Shown here one piece after another: positions 4,580-22,731 of a stretch of DNA of 24,000 nucleotides; the first letter of the stretch is position 1, and each line of letters starts with the position of its first letter. The translations under genes and the position numbers were made by a program. The stretch covers positions 712,214 through 736,213 of the forward strand of contig NZ_JAPDIA010000003.1 in the NCBI RefSeq assembly GCF_029525575.1. The letters are read 5' to 3'. Source of the stretch: Cohnella rhizosphaerae. Its GTDB lineage: Bacteria; Bacillota; Bacilli; Paenibacillales; Paenibacillaceae. Under the pieces are notes generated by a model. It was not told where the DNA came from and ran no database searches. It saw only the letters and a list, made by a program, of their open reading frames with translations.

Positions 4580-7178
4580 ATGAGAGTTTTGAAAAACAAG
4601 CGTTCGTGGCTGTCCCTCTTTTTTAAGTTTTATGCTGATGTCGAGCGGTATGCTGTCGATCCCTTCGCTGGCGACGAAGACCTACGCCAACAACGCGACT
4701 TATTATGTCGATTCGGTCGGCGGCAGCGACGGCAACAGCGGGCTGAGCGAAAGCTCGGCCTGGCAATCGCTGGCCAAGGTGAACGGCACGACGTTCCAGC
4801 CGGGCGACAAGATCTTGTTCAAAGCCGGCTCCGTCTGGTCCGGACAGCTGCACCCGCTCGGCTCCGGCACTTCCGGCGCGCCGATCGTCATCGACAAGTA
4901 TGGCAGCGGCGGCAGGCCCATCATTAACGGCAACGGCCTGATCGGCGCCACGGTTTATTTCTACAACCAGCAGTATTGGGAAGTCAACAATCTGGAAATT
5001 ACGAATTCGGCGACGGCGGAGGGCGAACGGTACGGGATCAAGGTAGAGGCGCAAGACGTCGGGACGTACAACCACTTTTACATCCAGAACAATTATGTCC
5101 ATGACGTGAAAGGGACGAACAGCGACGCGCTCAAAGCGACCGGGGGAATCCTCGTGCTCGTCACGGGGACGGCGGTGCGCTCGAAGTGGAACGACGTGCG
5201 AATCGACGGCAACACCGTCGAGCGCGTCGACCGTACCGGGATCAACAGCGCGAGCTCGTGGGGCAACAATGACAATACCGGCAGCTTCGAGCCTTTTACG
5301 AACCTGGTGATCAGCAACAATACGCTGAACGATATCGGCGGGGACGGCATCGTGATGCGCGCTTCGATCAACGGTCTTATCCAATACAACGTGGTGAACG
5401 CCGCGCACAACCGGGACACGCACTACGACGTGGCGATCTGGGCGATTAACAGCACGAATCCGGTCATGCAATACAACGAAGCTTATAATACGAAAACGAC
5501 GAACGACGGCCAGGGCTTCGACTGCGACTACAACCTGAGCGGCTGCACCGTGCAATACAACTACAGCCACGACAACGAAGGCGGCTTCCTGCTGATCATG
5601 GGCGTCGGCGCGATCCGCAACGTCGACATGGTCGTCAGGTACAACATCAGCCAGAACGACCGGGCGCGCACGTTCCAGTTCAGCGACAGCTACACGCCCC
5701 TGAACGCCAGTATTTACAACAACACGATCTATGTCGGATCCGGCTTGACGACGAGCATCGTATACGGACTCGGGGGCAGCAATCCGCTGTCGTTCAAAAA
5801 CAACATTGTGTACAACCTTGGCAGCGGCGGTTATACGGTCAAAGGGAACGACGTGTACGACTACAATGTGTTCTACGGCAATCATCCGGCCAGCGAACCG
5901 AGCGATCCCCACAAGCTCACGAGCGATCCGATGTTCGTCACGGCGGGAAGCGGAGGGACGGGGCGGAATACGGTTGACGGGTACAAGCTTGTCGCGGGAT
6001 CGCCGGCTCTCGGATCGGGCGTCCTGATCGGCGGCAACGGAGGGAAGGACTACTGGGGCAATGCCGTGTCTTCCGCCGGCGCGCCGAACCGGGGCGCATA
6101 CAATGGGGCGGGCATCCCTGCGGGCGGCGCCAACCTGACTTTGCTGAGCGACAACTTCGAAACGGGCGCCGCGACGGGATGGAGCGCTTCGGGCGGAACG
6201 TGGAACGTCGTCACGGACGGATCGAAGGTTTACAACCAATCGAGCACCGCCGCTGCCGGCGTGACGGCCTACAGCGGACAGAGTGCCTGGCAGAATTATG
6301 CGGTATCCGCCAAAGTGAAGGCCGACGCCTTCGACAGCACCAACTATGCGGGAGTTGGCCTCGTCGCCAGGCGCGTCGACGATAACAACTATTACGTGTT
6401 CATGTACTATAAATTGAACAATACGTTAAAAATCGCCAAGGTGTCCGGCGGCACGGCCACCGATCTGGTGACGATGCCGTTCAGTCTGAGCACGGGAACG
6501 TGGTACGACTTCAAGGCGGTCGTGAATGGCAGCGCGCTCGAACTTTGGGTGAACGGGGTCAAGCAGCTGTCGGCGACCGATACGAGCATCGGCGCCGGTC
6601 AGGCCGGCCTGTACGCGCACCGGGCCAATGCGAAGTTCGACGACGTCAAGGCGGCGCCGATCTTCGGCGAAGACTTCGAATCGGGATATGCGGCAGGCTG
6701 GGCGCTAAGCGGCGGCACCTGGAGCGTGGCGACGGACGGAACCAAGGTTTACAACCAATCCAGCACGTCGGCCGCGAGCGCGATCGCCTATGCCGGGCAG
6801 AACACGCTGCAAAATTACGCGGTGTCGGCCAAAGTCAAAGCGGATGCGTTCGACAGCGGTAGTTATGCGGGCGTCGGGCTCGTGGCGAGAAGGGTAGACA
6901 GCAACAACTACTATGTGTTCATGTACTACAAATTAACGAACACGCTCAAGATCACCAAAGTAGCCGGGGGCGTCGCGACGGACTTGATCTCGACCGCGTA
7001 TTCGCTTAACACGGGAACGTGGTACGACCTCAAGGCGGTCGTGAACGGCAGCACGCTGGAGCTCTGGGTGAACGGAACCAAACAGCTGACGACGACCGAT
7101 ACCGCGATCGCATCAGGTCAATTTGGCTTGTACGCGCACCGCGCCAACGCGAAGTTCGATCAAGTGATGCAGTATTGA
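4580..7178 (+). CDS. Secreted right-handed parallel beta-helix protein with two C-terminal DUF1080/LamG-like (concanavalin-type) modules; putative polysaccharide lyase/hydrolase
   Basis: RBS GAGGAGGA 4563-4570, ATG 4580. Reading T6 run 4619-4624 as T5 restores a signal peptide MRVLKNKRSWLSLFLSFMLMSSGMLSIPSLATKTYA joined to the 848-aa ORF. The sequence contains repeated NN.I/V.N beta-helix rungs, followed by two ~173-aa modules. Confidence 0.8.
6150..7175 (+). repeat. Intragenic tandem duplication, 2 x ~519 bp (6150-6668 and 6669-7175)
   Basis: The two encoded modules align colinearly (DNFETGAATGWSASGGTWNV... versus EDFESGYAAGWALSGGTWSV...). Identity is high at both protein and DNA level, with an offset of 519 bp. 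Confidence 0.9.
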
Positions 7179-16732: not shown

Positions 16733-16858
16733 CGTTGAGGCGCATGGAAGGGCTACTTCGACTTTTAATCGGCTTGTCGTTGGTTCGAATCCAACTCCCG
16801 CTTCGGCAGGATAGCTCAGACGGTAGAGCAGCATGCCTTTCCGACCTTTTCCTCAACG
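16733..16858 (+). ncRNA. yrlA: YrlA-type Y RNA (element B) with circularly permuted tRNA-like domain
   Basis: Outer stem CGTTGAGG (16733-16740) / CCTCAACG (16851-16858). Loop CGCAT versus GACCTTTT. Inner helix GGAAGGG (16746-16752) / CCTTTCC (16836-16842), followed by CTACTTCG. Interior, in order: hairpin (T)CGA-CTTTTAA-TCG(G) (16758-16772); T-arm GTTGG-TTCGAAT-CCAAC (16779-16795); acceptor-like stem TCCCGC-TTCG-GCAGGA (16796-16811); TA; D-arm GCTC-AGACGGTA-GAGC (16814-16829). Confidence 0.75.
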
Positions 16859-16874
16859 ATGCAGCACGACAAAC

Positions 16875-16969
16875 GGAGCGAGGCGAACGAGAGGGATACT
16901 TCGATATAAGGGACGGACGTGGCCATACGCTGGCCTTCCGCGAACCTTCTCGGCCATGTTCCTCGCTCC
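16875..16969 (+). ncRNA. Y-RNA-like element C (minimal), immediately upstream of the rsr RBS
   Basis: Outer stem GGAGCGAGG (16875-16883) / CCTCGCTCC (16961-16969). Loop CGAAC versus GGCCATGTT. Inner helix GAGAGGG (16889-16895) / CCTTCTC (16945-16951), followed by ATACTTCG. Inner hairpin GGCCA-tacgc-TGGCC (16921-16935). It ends 10 nt before AAGGAGG (16980-16986). Confidence 0.6.
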
Positions 16970-16995
16970 GCTCTCTTTTAAGGAGGTCAATTCCC

Positions 16996-18496
16996 ATGAG
17001 TTTCGCTAAAAAAGCTGTTCTCGGCCGTCAGGCCGACGACATTGAACCTGGATGGCTATCCGGCTTACGAACGTTCCGCCGAGGAGCGGTACGTGCAGAC
17101 GCTGGTCACCAATACGATGGGCAACACGTTTTACGCAGACGGTCAGTCGCTGCTGATCGAAGCCGAAGCGCTCCATCGCGAGATGGCGCAGCGCGATCCG
17201 CAGTTCATGGCCAAGGCGCTCGTCTATGCGCGGGGCGAAGGCTACATGCGGCTTCAGCCGCTCTACGGCCTCGCGATCCTGTCGGCGTACCGGCCCGACC
17301 TGTTCGCGAGGATCTTCCTTAAGGTCGTGCAGATTCCGTCCGACCTGTCCGACTTCCTGACGATCCTCCAGGGGATGGGCCGGGGGGAGGGCGGCCGGGC
17401 CGTGAAGCGGCAAGTGAACCGGTTTCTGGCCGGCGTATCCGAATACTGGGCCGTCAAGTACAACGGCCGGGGCCGGGGCTACAGCCTCGGCGACGCGATC
17501 GCGACGGCGCACCCGAAGCCGGCGGACCTGAAGCAGCAGGCGCTCTACCGGTACCTGCGGGGCCAGGAGGCGAACCTGTCGCTGCTGCCGCAGGTCCATG
17601 CGCTGGAGCAGCTCAAGCAAGCGACGTCCGAGGCCGAGCGGCTGTACTGGATCGAGACGGGCAAGCTGCCGCACGAGGTCGTCACGGGCGCGGTGAAGCC
17701 GACCAAGGCGATCTGGGAAGCGCTGATCGGCCAGATGCCGACGTTCGCGCTGCTCCGTCATCTGAACGCGCTTGAGCGGGCCGGGGTGCTGGAGGAGCGG
17801 CACAACTTGCAGGCGGTGACCGATCGGCTAACCGACCGGCGCGCGCTTGCCAAGGCGAGGATTCTGCCGTTCCGGTTCGCCAAGGCGTTCCGGCAGGTGG
17901 AGCATCCGGTTCTGCGTGACGCGCTGCGGGACGCGGCGGAGTATACGTTTGAGCATCTGCCGGATCTCGAAGGCCGTACGGCGATCTTCCTCGACATCTC
18001 GGGCTCGATGACCGGCGACTACCTGCAGATCGGCTCGGTGTTCGCGTTGGCGCTGTACAAGAAGACGGAAGGCGACTCCCTGTTCTGGCTGTTCGACACC
18101 GTCGCCGAGGATGCGAAGCCTTCGCGCAGGGACAGCATCCTGTCGCAGGCGGAGCGCATCCGGACGCGAGGCGGCACGGATACGGGCGCGCCGGTGCGCA
18201 AGCTGCTGGCAAAGCGGCACAAGGTCGAGCAGATCGTCATCATCACGGACGAACAGCAAAATGCGGGCAGTCCGTTCTACGAAGCGCTGGCGAAGTACAG
18301 GGCGAAGGTGAACCCCGGCGTCAAGGCGTTTATCGTCGACGTCTCGCCTTACCGTGGCGCGATGGTGCCACAGCAGGATCCCGGTACGTTCTATATCTAC
18401 GGCTGGAGTGACACGGTGCTGAGCTACATCGCGCAGTCGGCCAGGGGCTACGGCTCCATGGTCGAACGGATCGAAGCGATCGATATCGATAACTAG
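16996..18496 (+). CDS. rsr: Rsr, Ro60-related protein (TROVE domain + vWA domain); one frame break in this assembly
   Basis: RBS AAGGAGG 16980-16986, ATG 16996. MSFAKK joins LFSAVRPTTLNLDGYPAYE... if A6 run 17008-17013 is read as A5. The TROVE-like N-terminal ~300 aa includes GNTFYA and RILPFRF. The C-terminal vWA domain has the MIDAS motif DISGSM plus GGTD. Confidence 0.88.
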
Positions 18497-21345: not shown

Positions 21346-22731
21346 ATGGCCATCGTTCAGCTCAAGTCGAGCCATCCGCAGTTTACGTTTCTGATCCGCA
21401 AAAATCCTTCTACCGGCATGCAGCTGCGGCAGATCCGCCAAGGCATGGCCTATGGCTGGTACTCGGACGATTCGACGTACAACGTTTACTTCAAGGACGC
21501 CGACAACGATATTTCATATAAAAAAGCAGGAAGACGAGCGCTTCGAGTACTTGAACGTCTCCCGGTACAACACGCCGCTGCTTCCGCTGAGCGCGATTAA
21601 CGAATTTTTCGCGGCGCCGTTCAAAAAAGCACGACGACCGGGACGCGGAAGGCTGCGAGCACGTCTTTTTTCATCAATATGATCCACGTCGACCGGCTTC
21701 GCTACATTGATTTTTTTGAAAAGCACCTGACCGATTATTCCTTCACGCTGGAGCACCGGGCGCACAAAAGCTACGCGCTCACGATCGCCACGCGAAAAAG
21801 CCTGTACGGTCTGCTGCATGTTGCCAGTGTGCTGTGCCTGTTCCTGTCGATGTTTGGAGACGAGCAGATCGACATCTCGGACGTCGTGCTCGACAAGTAC
21901 GTTCCCAGCCTGAACGTCATCGATGCGCCGTTTTTCATTCGCAGCCTGTTTGCGAGAAACTTCCTTCATTCGCGAGAGCGGTTCAAGAAGTACAAGGCAG
22001 TCGTGGAGCGGACGGACCGATATGCCATCGAATTGGCGTTCGGCGGTACGGCGATGCAGCGGCGCAGCTTCATTGCGGGCGTGCTGCCTTTCGACAAACC
22101 GATCCTCGACATTGGCTGCGGCGAGGGCTTTTATGCGATTCCGTTTGCGGGCAAGCTGGAGAGCGCTTATTACGCGGTGGACATCGACGAAGAGCTGCTG
22201 GATACCGTTGCGAGAAAAGCGGCTGCCAAGGAGATAGACAATATCGCGACGTTCGGTTCGCTCGACCGCTTCCTCGAAACATACAACGGCGAGCAGGTCG
22301 ACGTCATCCTCACGGAGGTTGTCGAGCATATGAGCCTGGAGGACGCAGCGGCGTTTGTCCGGCACATCGGCACCGAGGTCGATTTCGAACGGTTGATCGT
22401 GACGACGCCGAACGCGGACTTCAACCGGTATTACGAGCTGGAAGGGTTCCGGCATGAGGATCATAAGTGGGAATTGGGCCAGGCGGCGTTCCGGCAATGG
22501 TTTGCAGATACGGTACAAGGGCTGCCGCTCGATTGCGAGTTTGTCGAAATCGGAGATCGGGTGGACGGCGTTCATACGACGCAGGGCGTCATCGTCCGCA
22601 GAGGGGGAGGGGTAGCGCATGGAGATGGCGACGCGCGTGCATACGATATTTATGCTGGTCGGCTCAAGCGAATGCGGCAAGACGACGTTTGCAAAAGAAG
22701 TGATGATGCCGCAGCTGCGTCTGACGGATGA
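21346..22731 (+). CDS. hen1: Bacterial Hen1, RNA 3'-terminal ribose 2'-O-methyltransferase (N-terminal ligase-activating domain + SAM methyltransferase); three frame breaks; the real stop is probably TAG 22613-22615
   Basis: ATG 21346 (RBS GAGAGGA). Frames are joined across A6 21520-21525, A6 21623-21628 and T6 21666-21671. The SAM motif is ILDIGCGEGFYA. The N-terminal pattern (FEYLNVSRYNTPLLPLSAINEFFAAPF) is typical of bacterial Hen1. If G5 run 22603-22607 is read as G4, the ORF ends ...IVRRGEG* 3 nt before the pnkp ATG. Confidence 0.85.

Follow-up and report, generated by a model that had tools for sequence, protein, structure and literature searches.

An anticodon-type stem-loop in the permuted tRNA-like domain of a YrlA-family Y RNA from Cohnella rhizosphaerae

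Bacterial Y RNAs of the YrlA family mimic three parts of tRNA, the D arm, the T arm and the acceptor stem (Chen et al. 2014, PMC4201824). The same study described two family motifs, GNCGAAN0-1G and YUAY, named a further hairpin the "V" stem-loop as the equivalent of the tRNA variable arm, and reported that TruB, DusA, RNase P and the enzyme that adds CCA act on YrlAs, the Mycobacterium smegmatis RNA being cut by RNase P and receiving CCA. According to Wang et al. (2018, bioRxiv 10.1101/312249), Salmonella YrlA "lacks the anticodon loop", and its connecting stem stands where the anticodon stem would be. Hughes et al. (2020, PMC7790460) found Salmonella YrlA to be uncleaved and proposed that YrlA, through its tRNA-like domain, could be a competitive inhibitor of an anticodon nuclease. 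Since 2014, the question has been which partners this domain binds in bacterial Y RNAs. Here we analyze a YrlA-type Y RNA at positions 16733-16858 (+ strand) of a 24,000-nucleotide (nt) stretch of Cohnella rhizosphaerae DNA, hereafter the window, and find that its tRNA-like domain would include a full anticodon stem-loop.

As in YrlA (Rfam RF02553; Salmonella Typhimurium structure PDB 6CU1; M. smegmatis and mycobacteriophage RNAs), the RNA immediately precedes rsr on its strand, has YUAY and a terminal stem whose motif is probably of the GNCG type, and carries T and D arms with tRNA-invariant bases on either side of a closed acceptor-like stem, in permuted order. Unlike published YrlAs, it contains a 15-nt insertion that, together with a helix of 2 base pairs (bp), would build the anticodon stem-loop. 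What is new here is a reinterpretation, or variant, of the known YrlA family, with an anticodon stem-loop left out of published descriptions; the hairpin itself is almost certainly the published "V" stem-loop. Our literature search found no published reading of it as an anticodon arm, with the 2018 review by Sim & Wolin and the supplements of Chen et al. 2014 outside its coverage and a supplementary drawing possible. The explanation that we favor, and consider probable, is a YrlA-family Y RNA that combines an Rsr module with a complete circularly permuted class-I tRNA shown to tRNA-reading proteins.

The Deinococcus radiodurans Y RNA Yrn1 also has a tRNA-like module, and a "potential anticodon arm" with a 5-bp stem is in print for it. 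Its loop has 6 nt, however, its arm sits between the T and D elements in the place of YrlA's acceptor stem, and it has no convincing D arm; we judge that lineage to be independent. Permuted tRNA genes of the Cyanidioschyzon merolae type and two-piece permuted transfer-messenger RNA (tmRNA) place the 3' half before the 5' half and join the acceptor ends by a short linker. The RNA studied here shares this order and the joined acceptor ends, but it is broken in the anticodon stem (28/29) rather than in a loop and bears an Rsr-binding extension of ~55 nt. Unlike those genes, it shows no sign of maturation into a translating tRNA.

A split anticodon-type stem

Folding of the window RNA as a single sequence misses the hairpin, pairing GAC with GUC in the minimum-free-energy structure, which is weakly better than shuffles (z -1.9). 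A hairpin of only 3 bp might also arise by chance in a single sequence. The window alone therefore leaves the fold undecided, and comparison is needed. We collected 79 Rsr loci from species-representative genomes and worked with a 30-sequence MAFFT alignment (A2) and a covariance model (R1), under which the window RNA scores 137.7 bits. About 70 of the 79 loci have a strong R1 homolog (at least 90 bits) upstream of rsr, and the hairpin is kept in about 65 orthologs from Paenibacillaceae and Brevibacillus. Pairing and column statistics for the orthologs are from the 63 best R1 matches, of which 59 are distinct sequences.

Covariation supports both the hairpin and a continuation of its stem. Standard pairs fill 99.4% of 2123 pair cells and double-sided changes occur in 19 of 36 pairs, values that none of 500 shuffles reaches and that a structure-blind MAFFT alignment reproduces. 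The three hairpin pairs, C29 G30 A31 (16759-16761) with U39 C40 G41 (16769-16771), are paired in all 59 sequences, and 31-39 is A-U in 39 and C-G in 20. They enclose the loop CTTTTAA (C32 U33 U34 U35 U36 A37 A38; 16762-16768). A second helix joins G42 C43 (16772-16773) to G27 C28 (16831-16832). Its two pairs are likewise formed throughout the 59 sequences, 28-42 as G-C (32) or A-U (27) and 27-43 as C-G (57) or U-A (2), and it follows the hairpin with a linker of 0 nt in 58 of 59. Hairpin and helix would thus form a 5-bp anticodon stem (27-31/39-43) that closes a loop of 7 nt. Next comes a variable loop of 5 nt, TTGTC (UUGUC; nt 44-48, columns 46-50; 16774-16778), whose length is the same in 63 of 63 sequences and in which G46 and C48 are invariant.

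By this covariation, the chain is interrupted within the anticodon stem, on its 5' strand at nt 28/29, where the outer stems P2 and P1 attach via CUACUU. The original prediction had described a tRNA with a closed acceptor end, opened between D arm and anticodon stem; the opened chain and closed end hold, and the break is displaced into the stem. Another candidate, a hairpin extended to 4-5 bp by the upstream residues U27'/U28', was rejected: its fourth pair (U-G42) never shows a double-sided change and is C.A in two sequences, and its fifth is never paired.

The same build recurs in viruses. A pattern of the flanks only (GGGTTACTTC, 0-30 nt, GNCGNNGGTTCGA) matches 67 IMG/VR contigs, with an insert of 15-17 nt in 53 of 71 matches. 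On these contigs R1 finds 78 RNAs, often two or three in tandem, and most contigs that hold them encode an Rsr homolog. In the 71 distinct RNAs, pairing holds in 96.8% of cells and covariation in 32 of 36 pairs. Double-sided changes affect each of the five anticodon-stem pairs, pair 31-39 appearing as C-G (29), A-U (21), U-A (8) and G-C (4), and the loops hold many different triplets at the anticodon position. Mycobacteriophage QBert (CUC-AUUGCAA-GAG plus AG/CU) and Gordonia phage Mareelih (CGA-AUUGGGA-UCG plus AG/CU) encode YrlAs of this build. In an Rfam search of the phage and viral relatives, none reaches the gathering score.

Comparison of sequences thus confirms the hairpin that the original prediction had noticed in the permuted domain, and it is more general than first described: covariation and compensation in the viral set agree on it, and de-permutation (below) agrees on its size and position. 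A caveat attached to that prediction, that part of the stem belongs to a conserved TACTTCG motif and the mimicry could be coincidental, is answered by the viral set, in which positions 29-30 vary with compensation.

In the published interpretation, the hairpin is a variable arm, P2 serves as the anticodon stem and there is no anticodon loop. Chen et al. describe the hairpin in this way, and in the Salmonella YrlA crystal structure the connecting stem does take the anticodon-stem position. The order of elements here argues otherwise, since both the 2-bp helix that covaries (27-28/42-43) and a distinct variable loop of 5 nt come 3' of the hairpin, whereas a variable arm would sit 3' of nt 43-44. 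By general junction rules, the 0-nt linker would favor coaxial stacking of the hairpin on the proximal helix. The 7-nt loop with U33, a purine at 37 and A38 also speaks for an anticodon arm, and we consider the variable-arm interpretation quite unlikely.

Several viral contigs (L131, L130, L133, L145, L134 and L084) carry two or three YrlA-type RNAs in tandem, usually beside an Rsr homolog, and in most of them the copies differ in the anticodon-like triplet (CCU, AUG and UGA in L131). In Mareelih (L150), the RNA (5165-5299) lies inside a tRNA/tmRNA array and overlaps an annotated tRNA-Leu(gag) at 5149-5237, an annotation that may be wrong. Upstream of it, at 4961-5088, is another Y-like RNA with a weaker match. 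The homologs at L059 3512-3629, L062 3417-3534 and L063 3760-3877 are without the hairpin, GGGUUACUUC being followed directly by the variable loop. These resemble the Salmonella-type architecture, and L063 has both kinds.

The rest of the RNA follows the YrlA plan, and every element named in the original prediction is found where it had been placed within 16733-16858. The predicted ends are those of the terminal stem P1, in which CGTTGAGG (CGUUGAGG as RNA; 16733-16740) pairs with CCTCAACG (16851-16858); 98% of its cells are paired and 4 of 8 pairs show compensatory changes. GAGGCGCAUGG (16737-16747) comprises GAGGCG and an internal loop, and its columns 8-13, the GAGGCG, are invariant in all 59 sequences. 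This region is probably the Rsr-binding motif, related to the published GNCGAAN0-1G, of which GGCGCAUG matches 5 of 6 specified bases. P2 pairs GGAAGGG (16746-16752) with CCTTTCC (CCUUUCC; 16836-16842), 99.5% paired with three covarying pairs. The linker CUACUU (16753-16758; columns 24-29, nearly invariant) joins P2 to nt 29, and its CUAC (16753-16756, columns 24-27) supplies the YUAY motif.

After the variable loop come the T arm, GTTGG-TTCGAAT-CCAAC (16779-16795), and a closed acceptor-like stem-loop, TCCCGC-TTCG-GCAGGA (16796-16811), which has 6 bp with one C.A mismatch here, 7 bp in most orthologs, and covariation in all 7 pairs. U8 A9 (TA, 16812-16813) leads into the D arm, GCTC-AGACGGTA-GAGC (RNA GCUC-AGACGGUA-GAGC; 16814-16829), in whose region A14, G15, G18, G19 and A21 are invariant or nearly so. 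A26 (16830) follows, then G27 C28 and a 3-nt linker, AUG, back to P2 (the two together 16831-16835). The RNA thus has the T and D arms with tRNA-invariant nucleotides and the closed acceptor-like stem-loop between them that characterize YrlA, and it forms no normal 5'-3' cloverleaf with free acceptor ends; the Rfam tRNA model (RF00005) gives 18 bits against a cut-off of 29. The YrlA model aligns full length at 16735-16859 (E 7e-7), with an insertion of 15 nt, uucgacuuuuaaucg, exactly at the hairpin. The assignment to YrlA made in the original prediction therefore stands on this alignment and on the adjoining rsr gene of the same strand, although the score is below the gathering cut-off.

Loop composition and the lysine anticodon

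The loop is conserved at some positions and free at others. In the Paenibacillaceae set, column entropies for positions 32-38 are 0.29, 0.25, 1.56, 0.96, 0.34, 0.25 and 0.29 bit: C32, U33, U36, A37 and A38 are nearly fixed (at most 0.34 bit), and 34 and 35 vary freely, 34 being among the most variable columns of the whole RNA. Among 60 distinct arms from the Paenibacillaceae and viral sets, 57 have U33, 59 a purine at 37 and 54 A38. Positions 36 and 37 are coupled, A37 accompanying U36 in 40 of 40 arms and G37 accompanying G36 in 9 of 9. Of 20 distinct Paenibacillaceae arms, 15 have 36-UAA-38, as do 24 of the 41 arms of the viral set, where the other triplets at 36-38 include GGA (7), AAA (4), CAA (3) and GGU (2). 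G36-G37 is a determinant for TrmD, and A36-A37-A38 for MiaA.

Bacterial synthase of N6-threonylcarbamoyladenosine at position 37 (t6A37) has as its published determinants a strict 36-UAA-38, neutral positions 34/35, a base triple with pyrimidine 32, and D-stem contacts (PMC13276492). The loop therefore fits the type of an ANN-decoding tRNA, or t6A substrate; the window RNA has C32 and U36 A37 A38. Like the anticodon stem-loops of ANN-decoding tRNAs, the substrates of TsaBD, the arms combine C/U32, U33, free N34/N35 and 36-UAA-38 with a 5-bp stem beside a normal D stem. Unlike in those tRNAs, the stem is interrupted on its 5' strand.

These loops bear on the possibility that the hairpin is an evolutionary relic of a tRNA or tandem-tRNA ancestor, one that only stabilizes the fold and whose loop has no partner. 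Loss of the hairpin in some lineages and its absence from Salmonella are consistent with a relic, as are the unconstrained positions 34 and 35; an origin from tandem tRNAs would also accord with the R1 matches at junctions between neighboring tRNA genes. Yet Paenibacillaceae, Brevibacillus, actinophages and many IMG/VR contigs all retain U33, U36, A37, A38 and the length of the loop despite compensatory turnover of the stem, and a purely structural cap needs no 7-nt loop with such bases. A relic with an idle loop is, in our estimate, improbable.

The original prediction had gone further and tentatively read the loop as specific mimicry of tRNA-Lys(UUU), a decoy or sensor for nucleases of the PrrC, RloC or gamma-toxin type that would complete, with the neighboring Gln(UUG) and Glu(UUC) genes, the set of tRNAs with 2-thiouridine at position 34 (s2U34). 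Its premise was accurate: CUUUUAA is identical to the loop of a genuine Paenibacillaceae tRNA-Lys(UUU) (L011 2746-2821). UUU is also the commonest triplet at 34-36, with 27 of about 66 orthologs, the operon encodes RtcB and Pnkp/Hen1, and the idea of YrlA as a competitive inhibitor is already published (PMC7790460). The ortholog comparison that the prediction called for, however, showed a conserved hairpin and a drifting loop sequence. GUU (9), CUU (9), UCU (8) and GCU (2) also occur, with AUU, GAU, GUA, CCU and others once each, and close Cohnella relatives are split between UCU (L002, L004, L005) and UUU (L001, L003, L072 and the window).

Nor do neighboring tRNA genes explain the triplet. 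Across 60 loci (L001-L060) we found no link between the two: 46 have no tRNA genes near rsr, two more have only a doubtful tRNA-Trp, and most of the loci without tRNA genes carry the hairpin. Cohnella-type loci are the only ones in which rsr has such genes beside it. Gorillibacterium (L011) has its genuine tRNA-Lys(UUU) gene together with a UUU loop, and the His/Gln/Glu set is unchanged in Cohnella loci with a UCU loop. Neither lysine specificity nor completion of an s2U34 set survives this comparison, by which UUU in the window is one drifting state rather than a Lys-specific signal; we regard the lysine mimic as very unlikely.

De-permutation and a possible whole-tRNA mimic

To restore a conventional order in silico, we joined nt 28 to nt 29, opened the acceptor loop and ran ARAGORN. 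It called 62-63 of 63 de-permuted RNAs as tRNAs with the anticodon at position 34, the window RNA as tRNA-Lys(ttt). Neither the native order (0 of 63) nor de-permuted RNAs that lacked the hairpin (0 of 63) gave a call. Like a canonical tRNA, the de-permuted form has all four arms and an anticodon stem of 5 bp, with U33 and a purine at 37 in a loop of 7 nt. Its core shares 76% identity with the tRNA-Asn of the operon and with genuine Paenibacillaceae tRNA-Lys.

That the locus is a permuted tRNA gene, yielding a functional, chargeable or two-piece tRNA through an RNase P cut in the acceptor loop and CCA addition, possibly together with excision of the Rsr stem and RtcB ligation, would accord with the complete cloverleaf, the 7-bp acceptor stem of most orthologs, RtcB in the operon and the processing of M. 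smegmatis YrlA (PMC4201824), but is hardly credible given the window's 6-bp acceptor stem with its C.A mismatch and UUCG tetraloop, an unconserved nucleotide at the discriminator position (columns 75-80), no evident bulge-helix-bulge or other excision signal at 28/29, and an uncleaved Salmonella YrlA.

We return to the favored explanation, a Y RNA that displays a permuted tRNA. In this model, P1 and P2 with the invariant GAGGCG...GGAAGGG-YUACUU region would be the binding module for Rsr (Ro60), and the remainder would be a circularly permuted class-I tRNA, comprising the closed acceptor stem, U8 A9, D arm, A26, anticodon arm, variable loop and T arm. At a three-way junction, the anticodon stem would carry the Rsr-binding stem on its 5' strand. 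Selection would keep the architecture of the anticodon loop (C32, U33, A37, A38) and U36 and no particular anticodon, so that the Rsr-bound RNA may present a full look-alike of an ANN-decoding tRNA. It could be engaged by proteins that recognize the overall shape of a tRNA, anticodon loop included. The most concrete candidate partner is the t6A37 synthase TsaBD; anticodon-loop nucleases and the operon's own repair enzymes are more speculative. Engagement could tether such proteins to Rsr or set the RNA in competition with real tRNAs for them.

If this is right, the view of these RNAs shifts from mimicry of the D, T and acceptor arms, as published, to mimicry of a whole tRNA. Many YrlAs of Paenibacillaceae, Brevibacillus, actinophages and IMG/VR contigs would carry a full anticodon stem-loop, with loops that keep U33, purine 37, A38 and the 36/37 combinations used by position-37 modification enzymes. 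The stem-loop would also explain why the Rfam YrlA model and tRNA finders miss or mis-call such RNAs.

A number of observations weigh against the whole-tRNA explanation. Two of the three hairpin pairs are invariant in Paenibacillaceae, and C29-G30 lie within a CUUCG motif that is conserved also in Y RNAs without the hairpin. The hairpin is missing from a few lineages (L059, L062, the second L063 copy and Salmonella YrlA) so that the core role of a Y RNA does not require it. The A4 and A5 alignments were fitted to the model, and the sequences are related, so the 36/37 coupling may reflect few evolutionary events. The window RNA, at 38.3 bits, misses the Rfam YrlA gathering score of 69, a shortfall that we attribute to the 15-nt hairpin insertion; its relatives are below the cut-off as well. 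Finally, ARAGORN still makes 299 of 315 calls after the 13 nt of the hairpin are shuffled. We therefore dropped de-permutation as proof of hairpin pairing: ARAGORN speaks to the size and position of the hairpin, and its pairing rests on covariation alone.

A narrower version of the whole-tRNA explanation would tether YrlA-type RNAs with anticodon loops to Rsr as decoys or sentinels, which anticodon-loop ribonucleases would meet as surrogate substrates or as competitive inhibitors. We offer this tentatively and think it unlikely. Were it true, the drift at 34/35 and the phage arrays with different "anticodons" would be traces of an arms race with tRNA-targeting toxins and defense systems, and the neighboring RtcB or Pnkp/Hen1 would reseal the decoy.

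The surrounding RNA-repair locus

The RNA belongs to an RNA-repair operon of tRNAs, an RNase H-like gene, Rsr, DUF6847, RlaP, RtcB, Hen1 and Pnkp. A divergent HTH-WYL-WCX regulator occupies 12916-14891 (- strand). It is followed by a cluster of four tRNA genes, His/Gln/Glu/Asn (15608-15945), and an RNase H-like PF04308 gene (15996-16592). The YrlA-type RNA ends at 16858, and 138 nt separate it from the ATG of rsr at 16996, on the same + strand and well within the 4 kilobases from a Ro60/rsr gene expected of a YrlA. This rsr (16996, or frame from 17042, to 18496; + strand) encodes a Ro60 ortholog with TROVE and vWA domains (Pfam match) that is 91-95% identical to Rsr of Cohnella spp. The genes for DUF6847, RlaP, RtcB and Hen1 lie farther along, and after hen1 a presumed Pnkp reading frame (MMPQLRLTDE..., with a GDVHEC metallophosphatase motif; + strand) runs from ~22703 off the window end at 24000. 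The locus presumably has both the RtcB and the Pnkp/Hen1 repair systems.

A promoter and terminator scan of 14850-17050 found none close to the YrlA-type RNA, so processing from the operon transcript is possible. In tblastn searches of the operon proteins against 146 loci, no gene besides rsr constantly accompanies the hairpin, and the presence of RlaP, RtcB, Hen1, the WYL regulator, the RNase H-like protein and DUF6847 varies. Genomic context therefore names no partner for the hairpin.

Several reading frames are split. Compared with Cohnella sp. OV330 (L072), homopolymer runs are one base off at ~17008-17013 (rsr), ~20660 (rtcB) and ~14054 (WYL regulator), with a further difference at 21515-21665 in the upstream part of hen1. 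These one-base differences divide rsr (ATG 16996 versus the frame of 17042), rtcB (two open reading frames), hen1 and the regulator; in rsr, an additional A in an A-run breaks the frame after codon 5. Homopolymer sequencing errors are the likely cause, or else the operon is decaying.

Two more Y-like RNAs flank the YrlA-type RNA. A YrlB-like RNA (16874-16971, + strand; R1 35.1 bits, fold z-score -2.2) lies between it and rsr and shares GGGAUACUUCG with it; one or two such RNAs occur in most Paenibacillaceae loci. Upstream of the tRNA cluster, a third RNA (14972-15096, + strand; -55.1 kcal/mol, z -6.95) has a very stable fold and has P1/P2, GAGGCG and GGAAGGGUUACUUCG in common with the YrlA-type RNA. 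Beyond these it consists of a long hairpin and a hairpin of 7 bp that resembles a T arm, without a D arm. Orthologs are present in L001, L002, L003, L004, L005, L011, L012, L014, L068, L072 and L076.

R1 positions 29-105 also match stretches at L006 3314-3391, L068 2172-2249, L076 2681-2757 and L008 3482-3557. The L006 match spans the junction of adjacent tRNA genes, from the 3' half of tRNA-Ile into the 5' half of tRNA-Asn, and suggests that the permuted tRNA-like domain may have arisen from a tandem tRNA pair. Separately, in Cohnella ginsengisoli (L003 2733-2810) ARAGORN reports a Val(AAC), an unusual anticodon for a bacterium, where the operon's tRNA-Glu(UUC) sits.

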